In this document: in pieces, positions 2,830 to 56,916 of the stretch
How the letters are laid out: each line of letters begins with the position of its first letter
How positions within the stretch are numbered: the first letter of the stretch is position 1
Source of the DNA: Candidatus Wolfebacteria bacterium GW2011_GWB1_47_1
GTDB lineage: Bacteria; Patescibacteriota; Minisyncoccia; UBA6257; UBA9933
Direction of reading: 5' to 3'
DNA: 64,000 bases
NCBI GenBank assembly: GCA_001029635.1
Contig: CP011209.1
Coordinates: 747,969 to 811,968 of the forward strand
Notes under the pieces: model-generated
What the model was told of the DNA's origin: nothing
The model's input: only the letters and a program-made list of their open reading frames with translations
Database searches by the model: none
Translations under genes and position numbers: made by a program

Positions 2830-3291
2830 TTATTTAATATCCGGCAATAGCGTGTAAATATAATTTCCAATCAAGTTATTCCTCCCAAATTCTTTCTCCA
2901 ACCTACTAATCAGGTTTTCTCTAAACCAGTGGGGATTTTTATAATACGCTGTTTTTTCTTGCGCAATACGATCTTTAATCTTCTGCTCGGTATTTATGGT
3001 ATTTGTCGTATTTACTACTGGACTTGCCTTATACTCAGGCGCGGGCGTGGTATATCCAGTCCCATTTGCTCCATAAGTGCTCTTAATCGGCTCGATAGGC
3101 TGCGGAGCCGCCTTTGCATTATGACAATGATATTCTCCCGTACTTAAACCCCATGACGAGCAATTTGTTCGACAAGTATGACACCCGGAACTATCGGTCC
3201 TACCCGGATGCGCAAAAGAAACTACGGGGACCAATATCCCTATTAAACCCACCATAATTGCCGTTCGCTTCATTGCCATAAGTATGTTCAT
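2830..3291 (-). CDS. secreted Cys/His-rich protein
   Basis: Signal peptide MKRTAIMVGLIGILVPVVSFA followed by HPGRTDSSGCHTCRTNCSS...YHCH; probably metal-binding. Confidence 0.45.
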   Translation of the reverse strand: MNILMAMKRTAIMVGLIGILVPVVSFAHPGRTDSSGCHTCRTNCSSWGLSTGEYHCHNAKAAPQPIEPIKSTYGANGTGYTTPAPEYKASPVVNTTNTINTEQKIKDRIAQEKTAYYKNPHWFRENLISRLEKEFGRNNLIGNYIYTLLPDIK

Positions 3292-3776: not shown

Positions 3777-4202
3777 TTAGCGGAAAATTATATAGAGCCC
3801 AAAAATGAACGCATACCCCATTAACTCGTTAGCCTCCTCTTCATTCGGCCGGATCGTTTTATATATTCGGTTCACTTGATTGACCATATATAGCGCCACA
3901 ACTACTGGCAGTATCCTACCGGGTGCGTCAAACTTTACAATGATCAGTGTTAATAGAACTATATCACTAATGGCTCCACACGCCCCACTGGCGTAATCCC
4001 TGTAGCTCGCCTTCCCTTTACTTAACACGCCTCTGACTATGGAGTATAGCGCCATCTGCCCTACCATCCCTAATACAGACGACCAAAATAGCACAAAAAT
4101 TGCCCACCAAAATGGCAGTAGGAAAAATGGGGCGATGTATGCAATTAACCAAATGATCCGAAGTGAGTAGGTACGGATCACTAATTTATTAAATGCGTTC
4201 AT
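3777..4202 (-). CDS. membrane protein (141 aa)
   Basis: ORF track; 4 hydrophobic segments; stop abuts the next gene start. Confidence 0.45.
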   Translation of the reverse strand: MNAFNKLVIRTYSLRIIWLIAYIAPFFLLPFWWAIFVLFWSSVLGMVGQMALYSIVRGVLSKGKASYRDYASGACGAISDIVLLTLIIVKFDAPGRILPVVVALYMVNQVNRIYKTIRPNEEEANELMGYAFIFGLYIIFR

Positions 4203-4727: not shown

Positions 4728-4916
4728 ACTGTGGTGGGTTTTGCTGACCGGGAATGCATAAAGCTCCCCGCCAGCGATAGCCTTACGGCTACCCAAATCC
4801 CTTTCGAGATAAGACCCACCACAGGTGCTCTGACGAGGAGCTTAATGAACCTGTGGTGGGGGTTTTTGCCATATCTCGGGGATTTCCCAAGGGTTAGGCT
4901 ATGAAGTTATGCGTCT

Positions 4917-12413: not shown

Positions 12414-14207
12414 ATGACCGAAAAAGAATTATCACAACAAAAAGAAAGTCGCATCATCAAACTTGAGAAGGAAATTGAAAGATGGAAAAAGGCGGTCAAA
12501 ACCCAGCGCTACGGTTTAGTATGGCTCGATGTGCCTGAAGCATTTGAAGACGATGTCGAAAATAAATTACCCATTCTTGAGGAAGTGCCTAAAAAGGCGA
12601 TAAGGAGTAAGGATGCCAAGCCAACTCATCTACTTATTGAAGGCGATAATTATCACGCGCTTACTTGTTTAAACTACACGCACAAGGGAAAGATTGATGT
12701 AATCTATATAGACCCCCCGTACAATACTGGCTCCGATGGTTTTAGATATAAAGACAAGAGGATATTAAAAGAGTATCCAGACGGTACGGAAGTCCCGAAA
12801 GACCATCCATTTAGGCACAGCTATTGGCTATCTTTTATGAGTAAAAGGTTGGAACTTGCAAAAAGCCTACTAAAAGATACTGGTACTATATTTATTTCGA
12901 TAAATGAAGATGAGTTTGCGCAGCTCAAGTTACTTTGCGACCAAACATTTGGATTAGAAAATTATCTAACAATGTTCACTATTAAGGTAAGACACGAGGA
13001 GCGCATCCTTAAAGGCGATAAAGATTTCCACGAAGTCGTGGAATATCTTTTAATGTATAGATGCTCTTCTGCCTATAAAACCACGAAGAAAATCTATGAT
13101 AATACTTCATTGGATGAATATATTTATCAAGTCATTGAAAAAATAGAGCACCCTAAATCTGTTAAGCTTGGCAATAAGATGGTTGATTATTTTGAGCCAT
13201 CAGAATATGAGATTATAAAGGTGCCAGCGAGTGAGCACAACTTAAAGAAAATAAATATCCGTGGTTCTCTAAAAGAGGGCAATAGTAGTGGTAGATTTTA
13301 TATGGCTCATATTGCTTCAAGAGGTACCAAAGGTGTGCTTTATAAGGTACCAGATATGGGCAATGACAAGTTTGGACATAGATATTTTCTAATACCCGCA
13401 AAAGAAAGCAGGCTAAATGGGGATTATTTTCAGGGGGTACCACTGGACATACAGGACACGAAGAAAGTCCCCTACCCTAACTATTTTGACTTTGAAGCAC
13501 AGTTTAATAGCGTTGGGTATGAGGGGGGTGTCAGTTTCGGGGGCGGCAAAAAGCCAGTCGAGTTTCTTGCGCATTTTATAAATATCGGTTGTACGGATAA
13601 AAATGCAACTATATTAGATTTTTTTGCTGGCTCGGGAAGCACTGGGCACGCAGTTATGCAAATGAATGAAGCCGATAAGGGCAAGAGACAATTTATTTTG
13701 ATTACAAATGATAACGAAATCGTCAAAGATAAAGTTTATCATCCAATGTCTGAGGCGTGCCTGCCACGAATGCAGAACTTGATTAAAGGCTATGACAAGA
13801 ACCCGAGCTTGGGAAACTCAATTAAATACTACAAAACAGCTTTTGTAGGCAAACATAACATTCTTGATGCTGACGACAAAGATAAAATACAGCTCGCCCA
13901 TAATGCAGGGGGTATGCTTGCGATAGCTGAGAATACCTTAGAGCAAATTAAGGGAAACGATTATTGGCAGATTTTTGAAAGTGAGACCAGAATGACTGCT
14001 GTATATTTTAGAGAAGAGCAAGACCAGCTCGATGATTTTATAGACGAAGTCCTATTACTTGGAAAGCCAGTAACCGTATATATGTTTAGCTGGGAAGAAA
14101 AAGTGGATATTGTTGATTTTGAAGAAAATCGAAATATCAGCCTCAAAACAATACCGCAACCCATTCTTGAGATATATAAGCAGATATATAACATTGCTCA
14201 GTTATGA
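12414..14207 (+). CDS. mod: Type III R-M DNA methyltransferase (Mod, beta-class N6-adenine/N4-cytosine MTase)
   Basis: Motif IV IYIDPPYNTG precedes motif I FFAGSGSTGH (beta order), with a TRD between them. The stop overlaps the res start (ATGA). Confidence 0.8.
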   Translation: MTEKELSQQKESRIIKLEKEIERWKKAVKTQRYGLVWLDVPEAFEDDVENKLPILEEVPKKAIRSKDAKPTHLLIEGDNYHALTCLNYTHKGKIDVIYIDPPYNTGSDGFRYKDKRILKEYPDGTEVPKDHPFRHSYWLSFMSKRLELAKSLLKDTGTIFISINEDEFAQLKLLCDQTFGLENYLTMFTIKVRHEERILKGDKDFHEVVEYLLMYRCSSAYKTTKKIYDNTSLDEYIYQVIEKIEHPKSVKLGNKMVDYFEPSEYEIIKVPASEHNLKKINIRGSLKEGNSSGRFYMAHIASRGTKGVLYKVPDMGNDKFGHRYFLIPAKESRLNGDYFQGVPLDIQDTKKVPYPNYFDFEAQFNSVGYEGGVSFGGGKKPVEFLAHFINIGCTDKNATILDFFAGSGSTGHAVMQMNEADKGKRQFILITNDNEIVKDKVYHPMSEACLPRMQNLIKGYDKNPSLGNSIKYYKTAFVGKHNILDADDKDKIQLAHNAGGMLAIAENTLEQIKGNDYWQIFESETRMTAVYFREEQDQLDDFIDEVLLLGKPVTVYMFSWEEKVDIVDFEENRNISLKTIPQPILEIYKQIYNIAQL

Positions 14208-16579
14208 ACATATTCAACCCATCAAAATTTCAAAAAGATGCCGTCATAAATCTAACAGAGATTTTTACTACGGTATGGAAGCAACAAGGTAGACAATTAC
14301 CTATTGTTTTTAAATCCCCGACTGGAAGTGGTAAGACTTTTATGACCTCCCTTTTCATCCGCGGCCTTAACCACCTACCACAGTGGAAAGAAGATAAAGC
14401 ATTTATATGGATTACTTTTAGCGATGATTTGGCTATGCAAAGCAAAAATAAGTTTCTTGAGTATTTTGAAAATATGCTTGAAAATAGAGCTTTGACCGTT
14501 GCAGATATAAATCAAGGCAAACTCTACCAAAATGATATTTTATTTTTAAACTGGCAAAAGGTTACTGCCAAAAATGCTAATACGCGATTAATTCGCCGCC
14601 CCGAAGATAAGGAATGGCAAAAGGAACAGGGAGAATACTTTGAAGATGTGGTCGAACAAACTCAAGCCGATAGTAGACAAATTATCTTAATAATTGATGA
14701 GGCTCACAAGAATAAAGACACAAAACTCGCAAAGGATATTATTGATAAAATTGACCCTAAGGTAATTCTTCACATTACTGCGACACCAAACGAGAAAGAC
14801 GAACTTGAAGCTCGTCGTATTGGCAGTTTTTATGAGGTCCCCCGAGAGGAAGTTGTTGAGCAGGGCTTAATCAAAGAAGCAATCATTACTCAAACGGAAG
14901 AAGATTTCGAGGGTATGTCGGGAAAAGACCTTGATAAAATCCTCCTCGAAAATGGGATGAAAAAACGAGAGGAATTAAAAGCAGAACTTAAATCACTGGG
15001 TAAGAATATAAACCCTTTGATGCTTATACAGTTACCAAATGATGATGATAAACTTATAGAAAAGGGCGAACAGAAGAAGGAGGATATCGTTACTGATTAT
15101 CTTCTTAAAAATAAGGTTCCCGAGCATAGGATAGCAAAATGGTTTAATAAGAACCCTCGGCCAAATAATTTAGAAGAGCTCAGCGATGAGCACGACTTTT
15201 TACTCTTTAAACAGGCGGCTGGAACAGGCTGGGATTGCCCTCGTGCATCAGTACTTGTAATGTTTAGGGAAATACAATCGAATACCTTTTATACTCAAAC
15301 CGTTGGGCGTATTTTAAGAATGCCTGAGCCTCACGCAAAAGAAGATTATAAAAATAACCCCAATCTTCGCTTGGGATATTTATATACGAACTACAAGCGC
15401 AAGGAGGTAATAATACCAGACCAAAATCCCGCCAATCAACCTTTGACTGAGTTTGCCCATAGGAAGAAGGACATAAGCAATATCGAATTACCATCTGACT
15501 ATATTTCTCGCTTAGATTATGGCGATATTCGCGTATCTTCTAAATTTCAAGAAGTATTTAAAACAGAACTAAATAAGCACTTCGGGATTACTAATAATGA
15601 TATTCTTGGAAAAGCAGAAACGAAGCTTAAAAAGGCAGGGTTGGACATTAGCGATACTTTAGTAAATGAAGTTATTGCAAATGCTCGTTTCGAGGATTAT
15701 GACAATCTCGCCTTTGATTTCAGTAAAAAAGGCAGCGATATTTCACTTGAAATGTCAGTAAGTGATATTGAAAAGACTTTTAATTATCTTTGTTATCAAA
15801 TCCTAAGGGAGCAGGAAGACGAGGGAGCTAAGTACTCAAATGTGGCTCGCTCTTGGTCAGTCTTAAAACAAGCGCTTCGCGTCTGGTTTAAAATCGTTTT
15901 GCGAGATGACCATATTTACTGGTATAAGATATTTATCAAAGATGTTCGCAAGGGCGCTGAGAGCAAATTTCGCCCAGCAATAACAAGGGCCTTACGAGCT
16001 TATAAGCCAATTTCTGACAGTCTACTAACCGACAAGAAAATAAAGGTAGAGGAAAAGGAAGCATATATTTTTACCATACAAGGCGAATATGGGTATCCCG
16101 AGCAATACAAAGTTGTCCCTCAGAAGTTATGCGCCTTGGATAAGTTTTACTTGCCCGAAGATTACAATGGGCGTAAAAATGAAATTGCCTTTGTTGAATA
16201 TCTGGAAAAAAAGAAAGGAAAAATTGATTGGTGGTTTAAAAATGGCAATCAGGGAAAGAAGTACTTGGGCGTTAAATACACAAACTCAATAACGAACGAG
16301 GATGGCTTATTTTACCCCGACTGGATTATTCGTTTTCCTGATGGCCGTATAGGTATTTTCGATACCAAAAAAGGAGATACTGCTACAAGCACTGAAACAG
16401 CAGATAAGACAAAGGCATTGCAACAAAAACTTAAGAGTTTTGGAAAAAAGTTTCTTGGCGGTATCGCATATCAAGAAGCGGGCATTTGGTACTACAATGA
16501 TAGCCCCAAATACTCTTTTAAAGAGGGGCAATCGGTAAACGATAGCAAAGAATGGAAGCCTTTTGAGGATTTATTCTAA
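14204..16579 (+). CDS. res: Type III restriction enzyme Res subunit (SF2 helicase plus PD-DxK nuclease)
   Basis: Walker A SPTGSGKT; DEAH box LIIDEAHKN; motif VI TQTVGRILR; C-terminal PDW...IGIFDTKKG nuclease motif. Confidence 0.75.
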   Translation: MNIFNPSKFQKDAVINLTEIFTTVWKQQGRQLPIVFKSPTGSGKTFMTSLFIRGLNHLPQWKEDKAFIWITFSDDLAMQSKNKFLEYFENMLENRALTVADINQGKLYQNDILFLNWQKVTAKNANTRLIRRPEDKEWQKEQGEYFEDVVEQTQADSRQIILIIDEAHKNKDTKLAKDIIDKIDPKVILHITATPNEKDELEARRIGSFYEVPREEVVEQGLIKEAIITQTEEDFEGMSGKDLDKILLENGMKKREELKAELKSLGKNINPLMLIQLPNDDDKLIEKGEQKKEDIVTDYLLKNKVPEHRIAKWFNKNPRPNNLEELSDEHDFLLFKQAAGTGWDCPRASVLVMFREIQSNTFYTQTVGRILRMPEPHAKEDYKNNPNLRLGYLYTNYKRKEVIIPDQNPANQPLTEFAHRKKDISNIELPSDYISRLDYGDIRVSSKFQEVFKTELNKHFGITNNDILGKAETKLKKAGLDISDTLVNEVIANARFEDYDNLAFDFSKKGSDISLEMSVSDIEKTFNYLCYQILREQEDEGAKYSNVARSWSVLKQALRVWFKIVLRDDHIYWYKIFIKDVRKGAESKFRPAITRALRAYKPISDSLLTDKKIKVEEKEAYIFTIQGEYGYPEQYKVVPQKLCALDKFYLPEDYNGRKNEIAFVEYLEKKKGKIDWWFKNGNQGKKYLGVKYTNSITNEDGLFYPDWIIRFPDGRIGIFDTKKGDTATSTETADKTKALQQKLKSFGKKFLGGIAYQEAGIWYYNDSPKYSFKEGQSVNDSKEWKPFEDLF

Positions 16580-16584
16580 ACATT

Positions 16585-18120
16585 ATGAAAGCAATAATCG
16601 TCGCACGAGTATCAACTGAAGAACAAAGAGAAGCTGGTAATTCCCTACCCGCTCAGCTTACTCGTATGCAAGATTATTGCGAGCGGAATGGCTATTCTAT
16701 AATCGAGACTTTTAGTTTTGATGAGAGTGCTTACAAAACCAAGCGCGACGAGTTCGATAAAATCATTGCCTGCGTAAACGGCACAAAAGAAAAGGTTGCC
16801 GTTTGCTTTGATAAAGTAGACCGCCTATCACGCAATATCTTTGATAAGCGGGTTGCCTTACTTTACGAGCGAGCTGTTGATGATAAAATCGAGCTTCATT
16901 TTGTCTCCGATAACCAAGTCATCAACAATAAAATGTCGGCTGGCGACAAGTTTGCGTTCGGAATGAAACTCGGGTTGTCTAAATACTATTCGGATGCAAT
17001 CAGCGATAATGTAAAACGCGCGTTTGAGCAAAAGCGCAGAAATGGCGAATGGACCAGTGCCGTTCGATTGGGATATCTTAATGTTTCCTTAGATGCAGAA
17101 CAGCGGTTACGCAAGGATATTATCATAGACCCCGAGCGAGGGCATCTTATTCAAAAACTATTTGAGCTATATGCAACTGGGAACTACTCACTTGAGACGC
17201 TACGAATAAAAATGATTGAAATGGGCTTAGTGAGCCAAAAGGGTTTCAAGCCGTCAAAAAGCTGTATCGATAATATACTAAATGACACTTTTTACTGCGG
17301 TGTCGCTATGTCAAAGAAATATGGCTCTTTCCCCCATAGATACCCTCGTCTAATAACAAGGGAACTTTTTGATAGGTGCCAAGAGATACGCTTAAATCGC
17401 GTCAAAATGCCCAATAAGGCGCTTTCCAAGGACTTTATATTCAAAGGGTTACTCCGATGTCAGAACTGCGGTTGTTCAATAAGCGCCGAGAGAAAGATAA
17501 AGAAAAGTGGCCGTGAGTTTGTCTACTATTCCTGCACTAATGGCAAAGGTATATGCAAACGGGTGTATATACCCGAAAAAGACCTTCTAAGGCCCGTGTA
17601 CGAGGTTTTAGAGCGGTTTGAGAGCATAACAGAAGAGACACAAAATGAGCTTGTCGCCGAGCTTCGTAAGAATACGGAGGCCGAGGTAGTATTTCACAAG
17701 GCTCAGATAAACCGCATACGAGGCGAATACGAACAGATTAAGACGAAAGATGACCGACTACTTGAGGCATATTTGGACCAGTGTATTACTAAGGACATCT
17801 ATGACAAAAAACATCAAGAGTATGCGGATAAGCTACAGGTTTTGAATATTGAACTTTCCGAGTATACAAAAGCGGACCACGATTACCAAACGACTATTGC
17901 TACCGTGCTTTCTGTCGCTCGCAGAGCAAAGACTATATTTGAGAAAAGTTCTGAAGTTGCAGGAAAACGGGCGTTTCTGAATTACATACTTCAGAACCCG
18001 ACTGTAAACGAAAAAACGCTTGGTTTTACCTTGCGTTCTCCGTTCAACTTAGTCCTAAAACTTGCTGATTGTCCTAACTTGCTCCCCGGGAGGGATTCGA
18101 ACCCCCGACCATCTCGTTAA
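16585..18120 (+). CDS. large serine recombinase (paralog of 6395..8044)
   Basis: VARVSTEEQ catalytic Ser; VDRLSRN; CQNCGC...CTNGKGIC zinc ribbon. The last 13 codons are encoded by the tRNA-Asn 3' half. Confidence 0.85.
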   Translation: MKAIIVARVSTEEQREAGNSLPAQLTRMQDYCERNGYSIIETFSFDESAYKTKRDEFDKIIACVNGTKEKVAVCFDKVDRLSRNIFDKRVALLYERAVDDKIELHFVSDNQVINNKMSAGDKFAFGMKLGLSKYYSDAISDNVKRAFEQKRRNGEWTSAVRLGYLNVSLDAEQRLRKDIIIDPERGHLIQKLFELYATGNYSLETLRIKMIEMGLVSQKGFKPSKSCIDNILNDTFYCGVAMSKKYGSFPHRYPRLITRELFDRCQEIRLNRVKMPNKALSKDFIFKGLLRCQNCGCSISAERKIKKSGREFVYYSCTNGKGICKRVYIPEKDLLRPVYEVLERFESITEETQNELVAELRKNTEAEVVFHKAQINRIRGEYEQIKTKDDRLLEAYLDQCITKDIYDKKHQEYADKLQVLNIELSEYTKADHDYQTTIATVLSVARRAKTIFEKSSEVAGKRAFLNYILQNPTVNEKTLGFTLRSPFNLVLKLADCPNLLPGRDSNPRPSR

Positions 18121-18154
18121 CAGCGAGCCGCTCTACCACTGAGCTACCAGGGAA
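18082..18154 (-). tRNA. tRNA-Asn (GTT)
   Basis: Reverse complement TCCCTGGTAGCTCAGTGGTAGAGCGGCTCGCTGTTAACGAGATGGTCGGGGGTTCGAATCCCTCCCGGGGAG folds as a cloverleaf with a GTT anticodon and a GTTCGAATC T-loop. Confidence 0.85.
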
Positions 18155-37623: not shown

Positions 37624-38247
37624 ATGGCAGCTCCCAAAGGGAGAAAGTTCTCGGTAATAGCGTTGCAGTTCAGATTCCCCACCCTCGACAGCGTCCCTCC
37701 TTTCACGAGGCAGATAGCGCGTCGCCCGACCAAGACATCCAATCCGGCGACGCTTACCGGAGAACAGATCGTCGGCGCAACGGAAGGCACGTCCATCCTT
37801 GCACTCCTCGACGATCTCAAGGCGAAGGGGTACGACCTGGTTAATGCATGCTGCGAGGAGCGGCGCAACGTCAAAGGCCCCGGCTCGCATTACATCGCCC
37901 GGTACACCTTTGCAACCGCCGAGAGCGGGTTGTCGATCACCGAACGCTTCGAGTATCGCAAGGCAACGTTCCTCCGGGAGCTCGCCTTCATCGGCGAGTC
38001 GGCCCTGTGGAAGAACCGGACGTTCTCCAACCCCTTCATTAGGGACGGGAAACCGGTCACCGGTTTCCGTGCGGCGAGTCTGGTCTTCGACACCCGCCAA
38101 CCCTTCTACCAGGGTGACGGCCAGCCGGTCACGGTCTGGCTCAAGGACGAGGCAGGCGAGCGCATCGGCGATGCGCCCATTCCCCTGGCCCCCTCCCACC
38201 ACCTCCGCTACCTGAAGACCAAGGGCTTCAGGGTCGTGAGCGCCTAG
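37624..38247 (+). CDS. GC-rich orphan protein (207 aa) inserted between secY and rplO
   Basis: AGGAGG 6 nt before the ATG; ~62% GC; own promoter and terminator; opposite strand to the surrounding operon. Confidence 0.6.
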   Translation: MAAPKGRKFSVIALQFRFPTLDSVPPFTRQIARRPTKTSNPATLTGEQIVGATEGTSILALLDDLKAKGYDLVNACCEERRNVKGPGSHYIARYTFATAESGLSITERFEYRKATFLRELAFIGESALWKNRTFSNPFIRDGKPVTGFRAASLVFDTRQPFYQGDGQPVTVWLKDEAGERIGDAPIPLAPSHHLRYLKTKGFRVVSA

Positions 38248-38270: not shown

Positions 38271-38298
38271 AGCCGGCACTTCGTGTGCCGGCTTTTTC
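38271..38298 (+). terminator. intrinsic terminator agccggcacttcgtgtgccggct + ttttt
   Basis: Directly after the stop of 37624..38247. Confidence 0.6.
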
Positions 38299-38312
38299 GT
38301 ATCTTCGTGATA

Positions 38313-38336
38313 ACAAAAAAGGAGCATATGCTCCTT
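38313..38336 (-). terminator. bidirectional terminator aaaaaaggagcatatgctcctttttt after rplO
   Basis: Perfect palindromic hairpin flanked by an A-run and a T-run. Confidence 0.55.
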
Positions 38337-38341
38337 TTTTG

Positions 38342-38815
38342 TTATTTTTGCTTTTTTGCCACTACCGGTTTTTTCACCACCGGCGGCTTTACGGTCGGCG
38401 CTTCCACCGATCCGCCTTTTACCTCGATCTTTTCTTTTGCTGACTTAGATACTTCCAATCCCTTGACGGTAAACTTCTTGGTTACGTCTCCGTTGCCAAG
38501 AATCTTAATGTCCGTGTCGGACTTGCGTATCACACCTGCCGCGACCAATGTTTCCAAGGTCACTAGCGTGTCAGTCATTTTTGCGTCGATGACGTTGAGG
38601 TTAATACCCATCGCCTTCCCGAAGAGCGGCTTGTTCTTGAAACCGCGCAATTTCGGAATACGGATAAGCATTTCATGCAAGGCCGGGTTCATCTTATGGC
38701 CTGCGCGCGATTTCTGACCCTTGTGTCCGGTGCCGGAATTATCTCCTCGCTTACCGCCACGGCCTACTCGCTTTTTGGTTTTTCCCGGATGAAGGGGTTT
38801 GATTTCGTGCAACAT
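38342..38815 (-). CDS. rplO: 50S ribosomal protein L15
   Basis: GRGxxSGxGKTxGRGxKGQK motif. Confidence 0.9.
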   Translation of the reverse strand: MLHEIKPLHPGKTKKRVGRGGKRGDNSGTGHKGQKSRAGHKMNPALHEMLIRIPKLRGFKNKPLFGKAMGINLNVIDAKMTDTLVTLETLVAAGVIRKSDTDIKILGNGDVTKKFTVKGLEVSKSAKEKIEVKGGSVEAPTVKPPVVKKPVVAKKQK

Positions 38816-40414: not shown

Positions 40415-40470
40415 AGTGTTTTAACTTATGACCAGCGTATTGCCAGTCGCCAGCTATCGTTTATTAATAA

Positions 40471-40851
40471 TTACCAGATCTCAAAGAAGATCTCTCCTCC
40501 TACCTTTTCCTTGCGGGCATTTTCTCCGGTCATGATTCCCTTCGGTGTCGATACAACCGCGAGTCCTCGTCCGTTTTTTACAGGTCGAATCTCGTCACAT
40601 CCCTTGTAGATATGAATACTTGGTCGGCTTACGAAACGAACTCCTTCGATCGCTCCCACACCGTCCTCATATTTGAGGTCGATGCTCAATACACGCTTCG
40701 GGGCTCGGCCCTTCTTGTCGTATGCGGTGATGTACTTGCGGCTTGCAAGGATCTCCAGGATGCGCTCGTCGTTCTTGGTGTATGGCACCTTGATCGATTC
40801 CTTCTTTACCGCCTGGGCGTTTTTAATTTGTGTCAATAGATCGATATACAT
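40471..40851 (-). CDS. rpsH: 30S ribosomal protein S8
   Basis: DLLTQIKNAQ...VVSTPKGIMTGENARK. Confidence 0.9.
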   Translation of the reverse strand: MYIDLLTQIKNAQAVKKESIKVPYTKNDERILEILASRKYITAYDKKGRAPKRVLSIDLKYEDGVGAIEGVRFVSRPSIHIYKGCDEIRPVKNGRGLAVVSTPKGIMTGENARKEKVGGEIFFEIW

Positions 40852-40865
40852 ATATTTAACAATTA

Positions 40866-40955
40866 ACCTACGACCTACAACCTACAACGGAATGCACTCT
40901 CTGATATATTCTGACTGTATGCCGTTGTCGGTTGTCGGTTATTGGTTGTTGGTTA
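40866..40955. repeat. heptamer-repeat inverted element A, (CCTACRA)n / (GTTGTYGG)n, between rpsZ and rpsH
   Basis: cctacgacctacaacctacaacgg + 31-nt loop + ccgttgtcggttgtcggttattggttgttggttat; ends ~15 nt 5' of the rpsH ATG. Confidence 0.55.
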
Positions 40956-40957
40956 TT

Positions 40958-41143
40958 TCACCAGGACGCTTTCTTTACTCCCGGGATTTCGCCCTTTGAT
41001 GCCATTTCCCTGAAGCAGATCCTGCAAAGACCGAAATCGCGCATATATGCCCGGCCTCGTCCGCACTTAAAACACCTGTTCGTTGCACGGGACGGATACT
41101 TCGGTTCTTTTTGTGATCTTACGACAACTGATTTTTTAGCCAT
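40958..41143 (-). CDS. rpsN: 30S ribosomal protein S14, zinc-binding type Z
   Basis: 61 aa with CFKCGR...CRIC. Confidence 0.85.
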
Positions 41144-41166
41144 GATAGTTTAGTAAATAATACGCC

Positions 41167-41727
41167 TTAGTCCTTTTTCAACGGTACGCCAAGCAACCGG
41201 AACATTTCGACCGCCTCTTCTCGGGTATTTACCTGAGAAACAACCGTTACCTGTATGCCAAAATCCGCTTTTGCATTCTCCGGGGTGATTTCCGGGAACA
41301 CGGTATGTTCTTTAAATCCGAGGGAAAGGTTCCCAGCGGAATCAACTCCCTTCGTTTCCAGACCTTTGAAGTCTCGGACGCGAGGGAAGACAATTTTATT
41401 CATCTTATCCAAAAAATCGTACATACGAGCGCCACGCAACGTGACGGACACTCCGACAACAGTTCCCTGTCGCATTTTGAATCCTGCAATGGATTTCTTC
41501 GACGGATTTGTTCGGGGTTTCTGCCCAGTAATTGCCATCAATTCGTTGACTACAGCTGGCAGCAACTTATCGGTGAAATTTGCCTGCTGACTCATGCGGC
41601 CCGTTCCGACGTTCACGACGATCTTAGTGATCTTCGGCACCGCCATCTCGTTCTTATAGCCGAACTTTGCCTTCAATGCAGGAACGACTTCCTTTATGTA
41701 TTTTTCCTTTAAGTTTAAATCTTTCAT
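41167..41727 (-). CDS. rplE: 50S ribosomal protein L5
   Basis: Start at MKDLNLKEKY (the ORF track runs longer and would overlap rplX). Confidence 0.85.
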   Translation of the reverse strand: MKDLNLKEKYIKEVVPALKAKFGYKNEMAVPKITKIVVNVGTGRMSQQANFTDKLLPAVVNELMAITGQKPRTNPSKKSIAGFKMRQGTVVGVSVTLRGARMYDFLDKMNKIVFPRVRDFKGLETKGVDSAGNLSLGFKEHTVFPEITPENAKADFGIQVTVVSQVNTREEAVEMFRLLGVPLKKD

Positions 41728-41756
41728 ATTCGCTCGTACGTTGATTACCACTGCGC

Positions 41757-42065
41757 TTAGCTGATTCGTGCGCCGCACTTCTTGCAGGCGCGAACCTTCT
41801 TGTCATTCTCGACCATTGCGCCAATACGCGTCGTTTTTCCGCATGCCGGGCAAACCAGCATGGTGTTGGATACGTTCATAGAACGCGGGATCGATACGAT
41901 CTGTCCCTTTTCTCCCTGCTTCTTCGGCTTTACGTTCTTCTTGTACAAATTAACCCCTTCCACAAGAATTCGCTCGTCCTTCGGCATGGTTCGCAACACT
42001 TTTCCGGTCTTCCCCTTCTCTTTGCCCTGTATTATTTTAACTGTATCACCTTTTTTAATACGCAT
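41757..42065 (-). CDS. rplX: 50S ribosomal protein L24 with Cys4 zinc-ribbon C-terminus
   Basis: KOW region GDTVKIIQGKEKGKTGKV; CPACGK...CKKCG replaces the usual DPETGK...SKKSG. Confidence 0.85.
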   Translation of the reverse strand: MRIKKGDTVKIIQGKEKGKTGKVLRTMPKDERILVEGVNLYKKNVKPKKQGEKGQIVSIPRSMNVSNTMLVCPACGKTTRIGAMVENDKKVRACKKCGARIS

Positions 42066-42077
42066 AGTAGTGTTGAT

Positions 42078-42446
42078 TTATACGATATCCTCTGCCATCG
42101 TAACGATTTTCTCGAATCCCTTTTCCTTCAATTCGCGCGGGATTGGCCCGAATATGCGCGTTGCATTCGGTTCCATCTTTGCGTTCAAAATAACTGCCGC
42201 GTTTTCATCGAATCGGATGTATGATCCGTCCGGTCGCTTCGTCGCCTTGCGCTGTCGCACAACAACTGCCTTTACAACATCCTTCTTTTTTACCGACTTG
42301 CGAGGCTCTGCAGTCTGCACCGAAGCGACAAATACGTCACCAATACGTGCATACCTACGTCGAGTTCCTCCCAAGATACGGAAACAGCGGATGGTCTTTG
42401 CTCCGGAGTTATCAGCAACTTTTAAAATTGATCGTTCTTGTATCAT
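42078..42446 (-). CDS. rplN: 50S ribosomal protein L14
   Basis: [17 protein letters not shown]. Confidence 0.9.
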
Positions 42447-42466
42447 AGTATCCGTTCAAATAAAAC

Positions 42467-42700
42467 TTAGATCTTTCCGACGATGCGGAACCGCTTATCG
42501 CGACTCAGCGGTCGTGTCTCTTCCATAACCACGACATCGCCTTTCTTATATTCATTCTGCTCATCGTGCGCCTTGAAGCGCGCCGTTACCTTGTACATCT
42601 TCTGATATACCGGGTGCTTTGCGAGACGGCTCACCGCTACTACTCGCGTCTTGTCCATTTTGTCGGAAACAACCGTTCCCTGTAATTTTCGTGCTGCCAT
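42467..42700 (-). CDS. rpsQ: 30S ribosomal protein S17
   Basis: [16 protein letters not shown]...[13 protein letters not shown]. Confidence 0.9.
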
Positions 42701-42715
42701 AATATAGTAGTGGTT

Positions 42716-42916
42716 TTATGCCTCTTTTTTCCCAGTGATCAGTGTAGATAACTGCGCAACGACCTTTTTGAGCTTTTTAATCTCAGAAACGTTCTTTACT
42801 TTACCAGCTGCAAGGTCAAACTTCAAGTCCCGCAACTTAACCTGGGTCTCGTGCAGTTCCTTCTGCATTTCGGCGTGCGATTTGCTTTTCAATTGTTGGA
42901 AATCCTGCTTTTTCAT
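42716..42916 (-). CDS. rpmC: 50S ribosomal protein L29
   Basis: 66-aa helical protein, KELHETQVKLRDLKFDLAAGK. Confidence 0.85.
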   Translation of the reverse strand: MKKQDFQQLKSKSHAEMQKELHETQVKLRDLKFDLAAGKVKNVSEIKKLKKVVAQLSTLITGKKEA

Positions 42917-43323
42917 TTTATTACAACTCTTGTTTTAACTGGTAATTTATGGCCTGCTCGGCGGAATGCCTCGCGTGCGACCTCTTCCTTAACTCCGTCA
43001 ATCTCGAATAACATTCTTCCTGGCTTCACCGGGAACACATAGTGATCCACATTACCCTTACCTCCTCCGAGGGTAACCTCAGGCGGCATCTTGGTAACTG
43101 GCTTGTCCGGGAATACTCGAATCCAGATCTTACCTCCACGCTTCGTGAAGTGAGTGATGGATTTTCGGGCAGCTTCGATCTGGCGTGAGTTCAACCAAAC
43201 GCTCTCGAGTGCCTGAATTCCGAACGATCCAAACGCAAGGTCCAATCCTCGGGTTTCAACCGTACGGGTCCGGCTCCTGCCTTTGTGCCACTTCCTGTGT
43301 TTTACTTTTTTCGGGATAAGCAT
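42913..43323 (-). CDS. rplP: 50S ribosomal protein L16
   Basis: MLIPKKVKHRKWHKGR...GGKIWIRVFPDKP. Confidence 0.9.
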   Translation of the reverse strand: MLIPKKVKHRKWHKGRSRTRTVETRGLDLAFGSFGIQALESVWLNSRQIEAARKSITHFTKRGGKIWIRVFPDKPVTKMPPEVTLGGGKGNVDHYVFPVKPGRMLFEIDGVKEEVAREAFRRAGHKLPVKTRVVIK

Positions 43324-43336
43324 AGGTTTACGTTAC

Positions 43337-44083
43337 TTAGTTTCTTGTTTCTTTCCTCTCAATTCTTGGGCGACGTTCATCGTGGCGCGGTTGCCGTTTT
43401 ACTGGTTCCTGCTCCTTGTCCTTGAACACTTCTCCCTTGTTGATCCATACCTTCACACCAATGGTTCCATAGGTCGTATAGGCAGTCGCTTCAGCGTAAT
43501 CGATGTCTGCTCGGATAGTTTGCAACGGGATAGTTCCCTTTGCGAGCTGCTCGGTTCGCGCGATCTCGGCTCCGTTCAAACGGCCCGAAACGCGGATCTT
43601 TGCACCTTTTACTTCGCGAGTCTGCATCAAGTTCTCAAGCGTCTTCTTTAGGATACGGCGGAACGGCATGCGTCGCTCCAAATCGCGGGCGATATTATAG
43701 CCCGTTACCGCTGCGGATACGTCGAATCGTTTCAACTCCTCGATATTCATGCTGATTCCAGTAAGTTTTTTGCTTCCGTTTTTTACGCGAATAGCAGCCA
43801 CCTTCTTATCGAGCAATTTCGAGAGGTCTTCAATCCCCTTTCCTCCGCGGCCAATGATCAATCCCGGCTTTGCGGCCTTGATATGGATGCGGATCGAATC
43901 GCCGAAACGCTCAATCGCAACATAATCAATACCTGCGGCTCCGATCTTGTCGGCAATGATCTTGCGAATCATTACGTCTTCCTCCAAGTATTCCTTGAAG
44001 CTGACACCCTTCGGGAACCAGCGAGCCGTCCAATCCTTGATCACGCCTACCCTAAATGCAGTTGGTTTTATTTTATGACCCAT
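43337..44083 (-). CDS. rpsC: 30S ribosomal protein S3 (basic C-terminal extension)
   Basis: KH domain and S3-C domain; MGHKIKPTAFRVG. Confidence 0.9.
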   Translation of the reverse strand: MGHKIKPTAFRVGVIKDWTARWFPKGVSFKEYLEEDVMIRKIIADKIGAAGIDYVAIERFGDSIRIHIKAAKPGLIIGRGGKGIEDLSKLLDKKVAAIRVKNGSKKLTGISMNIEELKRFDVSAAVTGYNIARDLERRMPFRRILKKTLENLMQTREVKGAKIRVSGRLNGAEIARTEQLAKGTIPLQTIRADIDYAEATAYTTYGTIGVKVWINKGEVFKDKEQEPVKRQPRHDERRPRIERKETRN

Positions 44084-44104
44084 AGTGGTTACTAATACAG
44101 TGTG

Positions 44105-44659
44105 TTAGATAGATTTCCTCTGGAACATCTTTCGCTTGGTTCCTTCCTTTGCGACCTTGGTCGTTTTCTCTGCCTTTTCAGTCTTTGTCTTTGTCTTTGC
44201 TTCCTTGTCTTCCGCCTTCTCCGCCTTCTCAGTCTTCGCGGCTACCTTCTTAATGGTCTCTGCCTTTGATTTGGTGATCTTTTCAACCTTCTTTGCCATC
44301 GTGAAGCGAGGCGCCTTCACCTTGTCGGACTCTTCGAGCACGATCGTGATGTGACTACTCTTCTTCTGGATCGGCGTTGCCCGTCCTTGGGCTCGCGGCA
44401 ACCAGCGCTTCAGCATCGGTCCGCCATCCACCCGGATCTCCTTGACAATGAGCTTTGATGCATCCATTTTTGCATTATTGACCGCGTTTGCGATCGCCGA
44501 CTGCAACAACTTCAACACCGGCTCGCTTGCGCGCTTTGGATTGGTTGCCAACTGTGCCTGCGCATCGTTGACCGACAACCCCTTGATGACCGTTGCCATC
44601 AAACGCACTTTTCTCGGAGCCATGCGGAGATGATTCAATTTTGCTGTTTGCTGTTTCAT
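44105..44659 (-). CDS. rplV: 50S ribosomal protein L22 with Lys/Glu-rich C-terminal tail
   Basis: Start at MKQQTAKLNHLRMAPRK; core L22 followed by KAEKAEDKEAKTKTK repeats. Confidence 0.85.
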   Translation of the reverse strand: MKQQTAKLNHLRMAPRKVRLMATVIKGLSVNDAQAQLATNPKRASEPVLKLLQSAIANAVNNAKMDASKLIVKEIRVDGGPMLKRWLPRAQGRATPIQKKSSHITIVLEESDKVKAPRFTMAKKVEKITKSKAETIKKVAAKTEKAEKAEDKEAKTKTKTEKAEKTTKVAKEGTKRKMFQRKSI

Positions 44660-44670
44660 AAATGACTTGT

Positions 44671-44769
44671 GACCTACAACCCATAACTTATAACGGGGTG
44701 CGCTTTCTGATGCGCTCATTCTGAATTTTGTTATCGGTTATTTGTTATCGGTTATTGGTTATTGGTTAT
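44671..44769. repeat. heptamer-repeat inverted element B between rpsS and rplV
   Basis: gacctacaacccataacttataacgg ... gttatcggttatttgttatcggttattggttattggttat; the left arm ends 12 nt 5' of the rplV ATG. Confidence 0.55.
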
Positions 44770-45062
44770 TTCTTCTGCGCTGCCTTGCGATCCGCTTCCT
44801 TAGCCAACTTACCTCCGTGTCGGATGAACTTCTTGGTTGGTGAAAACTCTCCCAAGCGATGTCCGACCATTTCTTCCGTGACTCGGACCTGGATAAAATC
44901 CTTTCCGTTATGCACGCCGAACGTTCGTCCGATCATATCAGGCGCGATCTCGGAACTACGCGCCCACGTCTTGATGACCGTTTTGTCGTCGTGCGTCAAA
45001 GCAGCCACCTTTTTCATGAGTTTTACGTCTACGTATGGACCTTTTTTGGATGATCGTGCCAT
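44766..45062 (-). CDS. rpsS: 30S ribosomal protein S19
   Basis: [12 protein letters not shown]...[13 protein letters not shown]. Confidence 0.9.
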
Positions 45063-45101
45063 GTTAGTTGATTGGTTGAATTTCGTTAGTTGATTTTCAG
45101 A

Positions 45102-45938
45102 TTATTTATTCCGCTTTGATACGCGGCGCTTGATGATCAAGTCTGTCGAACGCTTCTTTGTGTTGCGCGTCTTGCGACCTCCTGTCACCTTACCCCATAG
45201 GGTCTTCGGACGCTTAGTTCCGCGTGGCTGTACACCTTCACCTCCACCGTATGGATGGTCTACCGGGTTCATGGCAGTACCACGAACGGTCGGTCGGATA
45301 CCCATCTGTCGGGAACGTCCTGCCTTTCCTATATTTACCAGGTTATGCTCGTTGTTTGATACCTGACCCATCGTTGCGTAGCACTCGGTCAAAACCTTGC
45401 GGACTTCACCTGATGGCAACTTAAGACTCGTGTACTTTCCTTCATGTGCCAATACCTGAGCGTAGGATCCGGCAGATTTCACCATCTGTCCGCCCTTTCC
45501 CGGCTGAAACTCTATATTGTAGACCATGTAACTAGTCGGAATGTTCTTAAGTTTCGAACGATTTCCTTCCTTTACCGGGGCACTTTCCGCAGTGATGATC
45601 ACATCATCCACCTTCATGCCTTTTCCAGCCAAAATATACCGTCTTTCGCCGTCATTGTAAAGCGCTCGGGCGATAAACGCTGAGCGATACGGATCGTATT
45701 CGATTGCTTCGATGCGTGCCGGAATATCAATCTTGTTCTGCTTGAAATCCACCATGCGATAGAGCTGCTTGACGCCTCCGCCCTGATGACGAGTCGTGAT
45801 GCGGCCTTGGTTGTTGCGACCTGCGCGATGTGCGATTCGGATGAGCGCGCTTTTCATCGGCTCGATCTTGGTCAAAACGCTATAGTCGACAACAGTCATG
45901 TGACGTCGCGATGGAGTTGTTGGTGAATATTTTTTCAT
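45102..45938 (-). CDS. rplB: 50S ribosomal protein L2
   Basis: 278 aa; GRNNQGRITTRHQGGG; GGEGVQPRGTKRPKT. Confidence 0.9.
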   Translation of the reverse strand: MKKYSPTTPSRRHMTVVDYSVLTKIEPMKSALIRIAHRAGRNNQGRITTRHQGGGVKQLYRMVDFKQNKIDIPARIEAIEYDPYRSAFIARALYNDGERRYILAGKGMKVDDVIITAESAPVKEGNRSKLKNIPTSYMVYNIEFQPGKGGQMVKSAGSYAQVLAHEGKYTSLKLPSGEVRKVLTECYATMGQVSNNEHNLVNIGKAGRSRQMGIRPTVRGTAMNPVDHPYGGGEGVQPRGTKRPKTLWGKVTGGRKTRNTKKRSTDLIIKRRVSKRNK

Positions 45939-45946
45939 ACAAATTA

Positions 45947-46040
45947 ACTTACAACCTACGACCTACAACCTACAACGGCTGATCGGTTCATTGGTTTGTA
46001 TTGTTGTTTCTAGTTGTTGGTTATCGGTTGTCGGTTTTTT
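45947..46040. repeat. heptamer-repeat inverted element C between rplW and rplB
   Basis: acttacaacctacgacctacaacctacaacgg ... gttggttatcggttgtcggtttttt; the left arm ends 8 nt 5' of the rplB ATG. Confidence 0.55.
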
Positions 46041-46413
46041 AGGAAGGCATGATGTCGAGCTTCTGCCCTGGCTTCAAAGTGACAATCGCCTTCTTGGTGG
46101 TCGTCTTCTTGCCGGCAACGCCGCGGAACTTCTGTCGCTCTCCCCGGATAGTGACCGTGTTCACGGAAATCGGGTCGACGTTGTAGATGCTCTTGATCGC
46201 CTTTGCAATCTCGGACTTGTTCGTGTGCTTATCCACCACAAATACGTATTGTCCTGCAATGCTCATGTGATACGCTTTTTCGGTGATCAACGGGCGCTTT
46301 ATTATAAACTCATTCGCCGGGCTTCGCAAAGCTCCTTTTGATGAGCCCTTCGGCGTGCTCAAGGCGCCACTCTTCGCTCCCTCTTCAGTTTTTGATTTCT
46401 TTGCAATGGCCAT
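46039..46413 (-). CDS. rplW: 50S ribosomal protein L23 (N-terminal extension)
   Basis: IIKRPLITEKAYHM...YVFVVDKHTNKSEIAKAI. Confidence 0.85.
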   Translation of the reverse strand: MAIAKKSKTEEGAKSGALSTPKGSSKGALRSPANEFIIKRPLITEKAYHMSIAGQYVFVVDKHTNKSEIAKAIKSIYNVDPISVNTVTIRGERQKFRGVAGKKTTTKKAIVTLKPGQKLDIMPS

Positions 46414-47717: not shown

Positions 47718-47756
47718 AAAAACGGGCGGATTTAGTAATCCACCCGTCCCTTTGGT
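47718..47756 (-). promoter_or_regulatory. terminator-like hairpin with U-run in the 5' leader of the r-protein operon, 20 nt upstream of the rplC ATG (putative attenuator)
   Basis: Minus-strand RNA reads acgggtggatt-acta-aatccgcccgt followed by ttttttc. Confidence 0.4.
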
Positions 47757-47847
47757 GTTTCAACTAAATCTTCGTAAAGATTATTTCGCTCACTTTTCTT
47801 TTGTTGCAATCGATACCAACATCACTGCTGATATAATTTGACTCTGT

Positions 47848-47878
47848 GAGAATAACAGATAGTTGACTGGGTGTCAAC
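47848..47878 (-). promoter_or_regulatory. candidate promoter TTGACA-17-TATTCT for the r-protein operon
   Basis: Read on the minus strand; no other -35/-10 pair with good spacing was seen in the leader. Confidence 0.3.
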
Positions 47879-48142
47879 ACTTTCGCTGCGCTCCGCTGTC
47901 ATTCTCGCGGAGGCGGGAATCCACTTCAAATTTTTAAATAAATGTTTTTCCTACTTTTTTAGTAAAAGTAGGCCAAAAAGCGCGAGCAAAGTAAAAAAAG
48001 CGGAATGACCTTAAAAATTCCTTACGAATCCGAGGGTGCGCCCGTTTTTCAACGGGTCCCCGCACCTCGGATTCTGTTGGCATTTTCCGCGTTCATTCTT
48101 ATCGCTTTTTTACAGCTCGCAATCGAGATGCTAAAACAAAAA

Positions 48143-54896: not shown

Positions 54897-56625
<1,729 letters not shown>

Positions 56626-56628
56626 TAT

Positions 56629-56916
56629 TTATCCAAGTATCGCAAAAATGTTATCTTCGTCACCGACCATATATTTCCTTCCCTCGATTTCGACTTCGGA
56701 CAATCCGTATTTTTTATACAACACGGTATCTCCGACCTTGACCGACATCGGGATGCGCTCACCCTTCTCATTCATCTTGCCTTCGCCTACCGCGATCACC
56801 GTGCCGGTGGTCGGCTTTGACTCAGCCGACTCTGGGATATAGATCCCGCTTTTCGTCATCGATTCGGCTTCGATCGGGTCAATGAAGATATGGTTTGCTA
56901 ATGGTTTAATTTGCAT
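56629..56916 (-). CDS. groES: co-chaperonin GroES
   Basis: Start at MQIKPLANHIFIDP; 95 aa. Confidence 0.9.
   Translation of the reverse strand: MQIKPLANHIFIDPIEAESMTKSGIYIPESAESKPTTGTVIAVGEGKMNEKGERIPMSVKVGDTVLYKKYGLSEVEIEGRKYMVGDEDNIFAILG

Follow-up and report, generated by a model that had tools for sequence, protein, structure and literature searches.

Three elements of about 100 nt, here called E1, E2 and E3, occupy the whole of the spacers rpsN→rpsH, rpsS→rplV and rplW→rplB in the S10/spc ribosomal-protein (r-protein) operon of Candidatus Wolfebacteria bacterium GW2011_GWB1_47_1. They were studied in a 64-kb stretch of contig CP011209.1, which we call the window; coordinates are those of its plus strand, and the operon genes lie on the minus strand. 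We propose, at a probability of roughly 0.6, that E1–E3 are selfish hairpins of the intervening-sequence (IVS) type, devoid of an open reading frame (ORF), that colonise intercistronic junctions of the S10/spc operon and belong to a Patescibacteria-wide family. The label "IVS-type" is chosen because of the architecture of the elements and the identity of their relatives. The elements form one family, which is gained, lost and replaced rapidly, keeps its hairpin, is not specific to r-protein genes and shares its arms with elements that carry PF05635 genes. On this reading, effects on the expression of rpsH, rplV and rplB are a by-product and not conserved autoregulation.

Architecture of E1–E3

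On the plus strand, at 40866–40955, 44671–44769 and 45947–46040, a run of CCTACRA heptamers is followed by an interval of 33–36 nt and a run of GTTRTYGG heptamers. A preliminary description of the window, made from its letters alone, had recognised this inverted heptamer architecture as common to three spacers, and the sequence itself, Tandem Repeats Finder, a period-7 scan and a covariance model all bear it out. The pattern was read correctly for the plus strand; the genes, however, are on the minus strand, and the 5′ arm of the mRNA is AACCRAY. Read as mRNA, every spacer has, between the stop codon and the AUG, (AACCRAY)3-5, then ~33 nt of apical region, then (GUUGUAGG)3-4 and last an A/U-rich tail of 7–13 nt. 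The 5′ arm (AACCRAYAAC...) begins at, or directly after, the upstream stop codon, and the last heptamer of the start-proximal arm (GUUGUAGG...) ends 13 (E1), 11 (E2) or 7 nt (E3) before the AUG. The elements and the genes that flank them are as follows.

E1, 40852..40957 (minus strand): rpsN→rpsH spacer; covariance-model match 40849–40963 (minus), 109.6 bits, E = 5.8e-22; 5′ arm (AACCAAC/AACCAAU/AACCGAC x2) 40922–40957, apical region 40889–40921, 3′ arm (GUUGUAGG x2, GUCGUAGG) 40865–40888, A/U tail 40852–40864
E2, 44660..44765 (minus strand): rpsS→rplV spacer; covariance-model match 44657–44769 (minus), 102.3 bits, E = 2.6e-20; 5′ arm (AACCAAU x2, AACCGAU, AACAAAU, AACCGAU) 44727–44765, apical region with an inner GCGC...GCGC stem 44693–44726, 3′ arm (GUUAUAAG, GUUAUGGG, GUUGUAGG) 44671–44692, tail (CACAAGUCAUUU) 44660–44670
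E3, 45939..46038 (minus strand): rplW→rplB spacer; covariance-model match 45936–46045 (minus), 85.7 bits, E = 1.5e-16; 5′ arm (AACCGAC, AACCGAU, AACCAAC) 46010–46038, apical region 45977–46009, 3′ arm (GUUGUAGG x2, GUCGUAGG, GUUGUAAG) 45946–45976, tail 45939–45945
rpsN (type Z S14), 40958..41143 (minus strand): NCBIfam NF005974, E = 3.9e-31; UGA stop codon 40958–40960 adjoins the first E1 heptamer
rpsH (S8), 40471..40851 (minus strand): NCBIfam NF001109, E = 1.5e-36; AUG 40851–40849
rpsS (S19), 44766..45062 (minus strand): TIGR01050, E = 2.9e-35; UAA stop codon 44766–44768, then the E2 5′ arm
rplV (L22, 184 aa), 44105..44659 (minus strand): TIGR01044, E = 2.4e-33; AUG 44659–44657
rplW (L23), 46039..46413 (minus strand): NF004363, E = 2.5e-27; UAA stop codon 46039–46041 adjoins E3
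rplB (L2), 45102..45938 (minus strand): TIGR01171, E = 3.9e-112; AUG 45938–45936

Tandem Repeats Finder reports period-7 arrays at 40865–40888/40924–40954, 44730–44770 and 45946–45976/46013–46036, and a period-7 autocorrelation scan of all 64 kb flags E1–E3 as the sole loci with strong heptamer arrays. The CCTACRA dimer pattern CCTACRACCTACRA, with up to two mismatches, matches seven times, always within E1–E3, where 0.77 matches are expected and none of 100 shuffles reached seven. E1–E3 thus carry the three or more tandem intergenic heptamers that define the long simple-sequence repeat (LSSR), short tandemly repeated repetitive (STRR) and TAACTGA types of array, and they exceed that class in having a paired, inverted array and a shared loop.

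Folded as mRNA, the elements give hairpins of −34.7 (E1), −24.8 (E2) and −22.4 kcal/mol (E3), with z = −3.5, −3.5 and −1.8, and the complementary strand folds at least as well. The stems, of ~23 bp, are built from 6-bp helical segments separated at every seventh position by a single purine–purine mismatch. Consensus scans find no promoter-like or terminator-like site within E1–E3, and it is therefore to be expected that they are co-transcribed with the operon. The stems are A/U-rich with periodic mismatches and lack the G+C-rich stem and U tract of an intrinsic terminator. A search of Rfam, which includes curated r-protein leader families, gave no match for E1–E3 at the gathering threshold or at E ≤ 10.

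One family with a maintained hairpin

When 20 copies from varied junctions and genomes are aligned, the four heptamers of each arm stay in register and the copies have an apical sequence in common (..AUACAGG..GCGCAU.AGAAAGCGCAUCCCGUU). RNAalifold together with explicit pair counts on these copies yields 19 pairs, with 90.8% of the cells paired. Covariation accompanies the pairing: exchanges between C-G and U-A at six positions produce 25 double-change cells against 12.3 expected, a value that 500 shuffles never reached, and sliding the partner column makes the pairing collapse. Across 85 elements, arms fold better with their own partners than with swapped ones (−15.9 vs −12.7 kcal/mol; permutation p<0.0005), and the median stem in the family is 23 bp. 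The elements accordingly have the extended stem-loop bordered by complementary sequences that is a feature of IVSs.

A covariance model built from the 20 members finds only E1–E3 in the window (E = 6e-22 to 1.5e-16), with no further match under E = 0.2. Run on 0.7 Mb of fetched loci, it gives 238 matches, both strands counted, often several per 10 kb; among named genomes the matches fall in Parcubacteria and Moraniibacteriota only. A strict two-arm DNA pattern recovers 112 metagenome loci, 93 of them unique and most of them from groundwater.

Turnover among relatives

The host is a Patescibacterium (Parcubacteria, Wolfebacteria-like) of groundwater. Its rplV product occurs as an identical protein on 20 public contigs, and identical L22 proteins are found in GCA_003536095.1 and an ENA groundwater assembly. 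The operons of relatives were fetched by way of L22 proteins and a metagenome pattern scan, r-protein genes were placed by tblastn, and spacer lengths were tabulated. Fetched loci bear three-digit L handles. An occupied junction is one that holds an inserted hairpin element of either of two unrelated families, the heptamer family A or a family B (GATCGCCAATAATGC...). The counts are as follows.

Window: 3 occupied junctions, L23>L2, S19>L22 and S14>S8
L135 (Ga0208375_1000002): 10 occupied junctions
Ga0208958_1000092 (L204 and L197): 10 occupied junctions
L009: 1 occupied junction, a different one, L6>L18
L005 and L006: 0 occupied junctions, with no element of the heptamer family

Occupied spacers measure 95–180 nt and empty ones 3–40 nt. 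Occupancy is out of step with relatedness, since 0, 1, 3 or 10 junctions are filled among genomes at 85–96% coding identity. L009, at 88%, is nearer to the window than L135, at 85%, but has none of the window's three elements; L135 and Ga0208958 are 94–97% identical. The heptamer family shows, then, the sporadic presence that is a feature of rRNA IVSs. At three junctions (L23>L2, S19>L22 and S17>L14), one genome has A where another has B, and in L135 both L23>L2 and S19>L22 are held by the family unrelated to E1–E3. Copies at the same junction are 63–72% identical while the flanking genes are 82–94% identical; the copy at the E2 junction in contig Ga0208958_1000092, for example, is 72% identical to E2.

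It follows from the lack of a link between occupancy and relatedness, the A/B exchanges and the low identity at shared junctions that these are not conserved autoregulatory sites. What they suggest is recurrent colonisation and replacement of junctions. Native empty spacers are A/C-rich and similar to the 5′-arm unit.

Family B (GATCGCCAATAATGCAAATC...GCATTATTCGCGAATACT) is also built of repeats. Its copies are 75–100% identical to one another and fill five further junctions of the r-protein operon, as follows.

Family B: L135 3441–3560, 4668–4784, 5946–6062, 7890–7995 and 8532–8645, and the corresponding junctions in L204

The right end of the family B element at S17>L14 is similar to the native empty spacer (CGGATACTATG). 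Other spacers of the relatives also vary. L005 has, in 2986–3050 and 3918–4013, four copies of the octamer CTTACGAG at L2>S19 and, at L22>S3, a spacer that is partly complementary. At S5>L15, there is a 134-nt insertion in L006 (9619–9752) relative to L007 (8682–8692), two assemblies that encode identical L22 proteins.

Genomic contexts

The elements are not restricted to r-protein operons. Genes downstream of family members encode ParB, pilins, DnaJ/K, MraZ, RsmH, RNR, SSB, HU, MurG and many r-proteins. In L139, three consecutive tRNA–tRNA spacers are each exactly filled by one hairpin, and in at least six other loci a hairpin lies within 0–4 nt of a tRNA end. Since the hairpins precede such varied genes and fill tRNA spacers, the element is a general filler of the spacers between co-transcribed genes and not a device specific to translation. 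The preliminary description had allowed for a miniature repeat that has colonised the operon. This suggestion has held up well: occupancy ranges from 0 to 10 junctions, families replace one another, the family lies before many non-ribosomal genes and between tRNAs, and longer relatives of the elements bear a PF05635 gene in the loop. One subfamily with a conserved apical region has been seen so far in r-protein operons only. Family-wide, the orientation bias is weak; 38 copies have an ATG-initiated ORF starting within ~10 nt of the G/U arm on the matched strand, and 24 have one on the opposite strand.

The window also has a heptamer-armed hairpin in another operon.

groES→groEL spacer hairpin, 56540..56632 (minus strand): on the plus strand TATGAGG-type units, then CTTCATA-type units; GroES and GroEL confirmed

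This hairpin folds with z = −3.4 (mRNA strand) and −6.4 (plus strand). Its covariance-model match is weak (E = 0.45), and it is related to E1–E3 but outside their sequence family. In L134, a contig from Hainich groundwater, ARAGORN calls a tRNA with anticodon UUA, which would read the UAA stop codon, at 2358–2431, directly downstream of a family A hairpin.

PF05635 and a proposed link to rRNA intervening sequences

In L139, the arms of the three hairpin-filled tRNA spacers recur in a fourth, here placed around a 118-aa ORF (L139:3752–4108). The product is a PF05635 "23S rRNA intervening-sequence protein" (E = 3e-24), or TIGR02436 four-helix-bundle protein (E = 1.6e-23). All ten PF05635 genes that we examined lie inside inverted arms of short tandem repeats. 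In eight (L139, L190, L294, L300, L303, L305, L308 and L310), the arms are heptamer arms of the E1–E3 type with the C/A arm first; in L237 and L087, the G/U arm comes first, and the repeat units of L087 differ. The settings of the eight are as follows.

L139, L190, L303, L305 and L310: PF05635 element adjoining tRNAs
L294 (Wolfebacteria genome, L135 species group): PF05635 element between a Mur ligase gene and a tRNA
L300 (Liptonbacteria contig): PF05635 gene in heptamer arms between groES and groEL
L308: PF05635 element directly before another gene

L305 has ORF-less and ORF-bearing copies in neighbouring tRNA spacers, with 5′ arms ~78% identical. The family, then, includes elements with a PF05635 ORF in the loop, and the three window copies are without it.

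Genuine IVSs are parasitic stem-loops that are excised by RNase III (PMC4990558). The IVS of Coxiella 23S rRNA has two to three tandem GACAGAT heptamers before an S23p ORF that is decaying, and RNase III cuts at the first repeat (PMC4990558). Tandem heptamers in the stem are shared by our elements. In rRNA genes of Patescibacteria (the candidate phyla radiation, CPR), many short ORF-less inserts that are not introns are present, together with PF05635 ORFs (PMC11270868). A literature search found no description of the heptamer hairpin family, nor of such elements in mRNA or tRNA spacers. The position of the elements differs from that of IVSs, which are inserted in a helix of 16S or 23S rRNA: E1–E3 lie between protein genes and other copies between tRNAs. 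Judged by position, they would best be called IVS-like and not IVSs in the strict sense.

Two further repeat arrangements were seen around PF05635 genes. In L310, hairpins with AGAGTCT-type heptamers (1–230 and 2060–2437) flank the tRNA cluster that holds the PF05635 element. In L118 (5100–5700), direct AACTTTG/GCACTTTG repeats lie on both sides of a Flavobacterium PF05635 gene, a hint that the association of this gene with repeats reaches beyond the Patescibacteria.

Proposed mode of existence

We suggest the following scheme. An element is composed of 3–5 C/A-rich heptamers, an apical region and imperfectly complementary G/U-rich heptamers, and it fits precisely into the gap from a stop codon to the start codon of the cistron that follows or, elsewhere, lies between tRNA genes. 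It would be transcribed within the polycistronic RNA and then fold on itself, looping out the extra ~90 nt and leaving the stop and start codons adjacent. The stem would probably be cut by RNase III, as in rRNA IVSs, and the insertion would thereby become nearly harmless. Slippage would change arm length in units of 7 with the register kept. In the mRNA orientation, the element would close the three frames with UAA or UAG just before the next AUG.

Weighing the proposal against its alternatives

Several observations weigh against the proposal of IVS-type selfish hairpins. The window has no PF05635 gene in its 64 kb. No heptamer hairpin was found inside an rRNA gene among the fetched loci, in which only one 16S gene is present. 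The link to genuine rRNA IVSs is therefore made through the shared PF05635 cargo and the heptamer architecture. A stem with a purine–purine mismatch every 7 bp may be a poor substrate for RNase III; when all fetched sequence was searched by tblastn with E. coli RNase III, no match appeared, in a sample too small to be informative. Comparison of empty and occupied spacers reveals no clear target-site duplication at L4>L23, L16>L29, L14>L24 or S14>S8, where the native spacer looks replaced and not interrupted. The transcribed strand does not differ from its complement in folding energy or G-U counts, and there is no sign that selection has acted on the RNA strand in particular; reasons at the DNA level, for instance a role as terminal inverted repeats, could therefore maintain the pairing in place of an RNA function. 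Finally, the copies in r-protein operons all have one orientation, and an RGG lies 5–11 nt before the ATG, with a peak at 7–9 nt, in 23 of the 32 sense-oriented copies. These two facts leave room for some selected translational effect.

The last point bears on an explanation that makes the elements a translational device, whose hairpin would couple downstream translation to upstream termination, whose G/U arm would act as a periodic weak Shine–Dalgarno (SD) sequence (UAGGU), or both. Each element spans the interval from the stop codon to 7–13 nt before the AUG. The preliminary description had stated that the genes have no SD and that the arm supplies SD-like UAGGU. The first statement is true of the r-protein genes, and of groEL, but not generally, as many non-ribosomal genes of the window have a strong GGAGG. 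The second gains from the RGG of the sense copies at the family level and is weaker in the window. The usual SD spacing is 5–9 nt. In E1, E2 and E3, the AGG is 15, 13 and 16 nt from the AUG, and none of the three has an anti-SD-complementary purine run 5–9 nt before it, which makes the SD idea weak for the window copies. In addition, 14 antisense-oriented copies also adjoin start codons, and all of them lack an RGG at up to 11 nt from the ATG; hairpins fill tRNA–tRNA spacers as well, where translation is irrelevant. The closing of all three frames by UAA or UAG in the mRNA orientation in 75 of 93 copies (all three window copies among them), against 31 of 93 on the other strand, fits a translational role, as does the single orientation in r-protein operons. 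On the other side, relatives with 88% identical operons manage without the elements, and the mRNA strand is no stabler than its complement. We consider it unlikely that the elements are a translational device; a translational side-effect is possible, but it would not be the reason for their existence.

A second alternative is that E1–E3 are miniature inverted-repeat transposable elements (MITEs) or repetitive extragenic palindromic (REP)-type elements, moved as DNA by a transposase, for example an enzyme of the IS200/IS605 family or a REP-associated tyrosine transposase (RAYT), which recognise hairpins in DNA, with no link to RNA processing. E1–E3 have inverted arms, are small, lack an ORF, occur in many copies and are polymorphic for presence, as a MITE would be, and the equal folding of both strands is what palindromy at the DNA level predicts. 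Every heptamer of the G/U arm contains GTAG, and GTAG is the conserved head of REP sequences. Against such an origin, three comparisons of empty with occupied sites show no evident target-site duplication, no transposase gene was seen adjoining any copy, and PF05635, not a known transposase, is the sole cargo found within the arms. An element of this kind is, in our estimation, improbable.

A third explanation dispenses with a mobile element and with common ancestry, each spacer having grown independently by slippage. In many bacteria, no long simple repeats are more over-represented than heptamers (cited in PMC4679880, PMC4692102), and the empty spacers are A/C-rich. Arrays of (GTTGTAGG)3 occur across many phyla, at >120 loci, and in IMG/VR control heptamer arrays of matched composition are about as common (14 loci vs 17, 11 and 10). 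Against this view, of 100 cross-phylum (GTTGTAGG)3 loci just three fit the hairpin model, all of them from Patescibacteria. On the last two counts, the notion that (GTTGTAGG)n arrays are one element conserved across phyla was ruled out; the cross-phylum signal appears to reflect the general heptamer-repeat excess known from the literature and not the E1–E3 family. For the family itself, slippage cannot yield a complementary arm or an apical sequence shared across junctions and genomes, the covariance-model E-values are 1e-16 to 1e-22, and the same arms enclose PF05635 genes. Independent local growth is already largely refuted and is, to us, highly improbable.

The weakest explanation, raised in the preliminary description, is conserved r-protein autoregulation like that at the E. 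coli S8 (spc) or L4 (S10 leader) sites, and although E1–E3 are structured RNAs in the S10/spc operon, one of them directly before rpsH, and one conserved-apical subfamily is so far confined to r-protein operons, it is effectively refuted, with only a slight residual chance, by the absence of positional conservation at 88% coding identity (the junctions are empty in L005, L006 and L009 or may be held by an unrelated family), by the divergence of same-junction copies relative to their genes, by the lack of an Rfam match and by the many unrelated genes and tRNAs that the wider family precedes.

Wider reading and significance

IVSs and S23p/PF05635 proteins have been known for ~30 years, and their function and mode of spread are still unclear. 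If IVS-type hairpins are what E1–E3 represent, the same kind of element is present in mRNA and tRNA spacers of Patescibacteria, where it sometimes fills ten junctions of the operon that a streamlined genome expresses most highly, and hundreds of natural comparisons of insertion, empty site and replacement would bear on how such elements move and how the cell neutralises them. The heptamer hairpins can readily pass for regulatory RNAs or r-protein leaders and could confound the discovery of RNA motifs in candidate phyla; they also upset the expected gene spacing of ribosomal operons.

It is tempting to go further and to suppose that IVS/S23p (PF05635) elements make up a general class of selfish "operon spacers". 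These would lie between any co-transcribed genes, be they mRNA cistrons, tRNAs or rRNA helices, and would be tolerated through removal or folding-out of the heptamer "zipper" stem in the RNA. Numerous heptamer arrays of bacteria that lack an explanation could then be footprints of the class, and the Avd-like PF05635 protein could be part of its propagation machinery. We offer this as a speculation and think it rather unlikely to be correct.

Other features of the operon and the window

rplC opens the operon, with no rpsJ upstream, and its leader (47720–47900, minus strand) includes the best promoter match.

Sigma-70-like promoter match, 47849..47877 (minus strand): upstream of rplC; TTGACA-17-TATTCT, with TG; consensus scan only

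Directly before the rplC AUG, the leader contains a hairpin that, with its U run (GGGACGGGUGGAUUACUAAAUCCGCCCGUUUUUU), is terminator-like; it is kept in L006 and may be an attenuator of the L4/S10-leader kind. Another RNA structure that is truly conserved in the spc operon could be the motif UUAACGGUGGACGGG...CCCGGUAACCA in the S8→L6 spacer, which is kept in L005 (7523–7606), L006 (8036–8100) and L009 (6095–6156); the corresponding spacer of the window (40415–40470) differs from the motif of those three relatives. The usual spc layout is broken between rplO and secY by a 207-aa ORF on the opposite strand (37624–38247, plus), which has a strong SD and no Pfam match and is followed by two terminator-like hairpins on the plus strand (38271–38293 and 38309–38346).

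The segment 1–18150 looks like an integrated mobile island. It is a low-GC block (35–41% vs ~48% elsewhere) of genes without SD, among them those for a DNA methylase (12414–14207), a ResIII helicase (14204–16579) and a large serine recombinase (16585–18120). The block ends at a tRNA (18082–18153, minus strand) and contains a match to the LOOT RNA (4776–4900, minus strand, 74 bits).

Comparison with known systems

The S8 (spc) and L4 (S10 leader) targets of E. coli are, like E1–E3, RNA structures inside the same operon. In contrast to E1–E3, which are neither position-conserved nor r-protein-specific, those targets keep their position and imitate the sites that their proteins bind on rRNA; the window itself contains no rRNA.

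REP sequences and bacterial interspersed mosaic elements (BIMEs), enterobacterial repetitive intergenic consensus (ERIC) sequences, Neisseria Correia elements and MITEs are small, non-coding inverted repeats that lie between operon genes, are transcribed into hairpins and vary among strains. The E1–E3 family has those same traits. It differs in having no sequence similarity to them, no clear target-site duplication and no transposase seen beside its copies, and in heptamer arms that keep their register on expansion and contraction.

Long heptamer repeats, such as the cyanobacterial STRRs and the GGGAATC repeats of Xanthomonas (PMC4692102), resemble our elements in being intergenic, in their fast change of length and sequence and in occasional inverted pairs. 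They are mostly one-sided and without a shared loop or cargo, in line with the 3 of 100 (GTTGTAGG)3 loci that match the hairpin model. The TAACTGA repeats of marine Beggiatoaceae, Cyanobacteria and Bacteroidetes (MacGregor 2015, PMC4679880) come closer in placement. They are tandem heptamers a few nt upstream of start codons, at internal junctions of r-protein operons, before genes without SD, and they are patchy across lineages (PMC4679880). Unlike E1–E3, they comprise 169 direct sets and one indirect set, have another unit and no complementary partner or hairpin, and no link to PF05635 has been reported for them (PMC4679880).

The comparison that we favour is with the rRNA IVSs of Coxiella, Leptospira and Salmonella (PMC4990558) and the CPR inserts (PMC11270868). 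These are found in rRNA helices 9, 25 and 45, whereas our elements are in intercistronic spacers of mRNA and in tRNA spacers. In our elements, both arms have 3–6 heptamers with a regular purine–purine mismatch, the window copies are without an ORF, and excision by RNase III, which in IVSs is not followed by re-ligation, would be presumed from the likeness. The two groups agree in being extended stem-loops with complementary borders, set within a longer precursor; in having ORF-bearing and ORF-less forms; in their sporadic presence among close strains; in the heptamers of the stem, as in Coxiella; and in their PF05635 cargo, which in eight of the ten genes examined here is enclosed by arms of the E1–E3 type.

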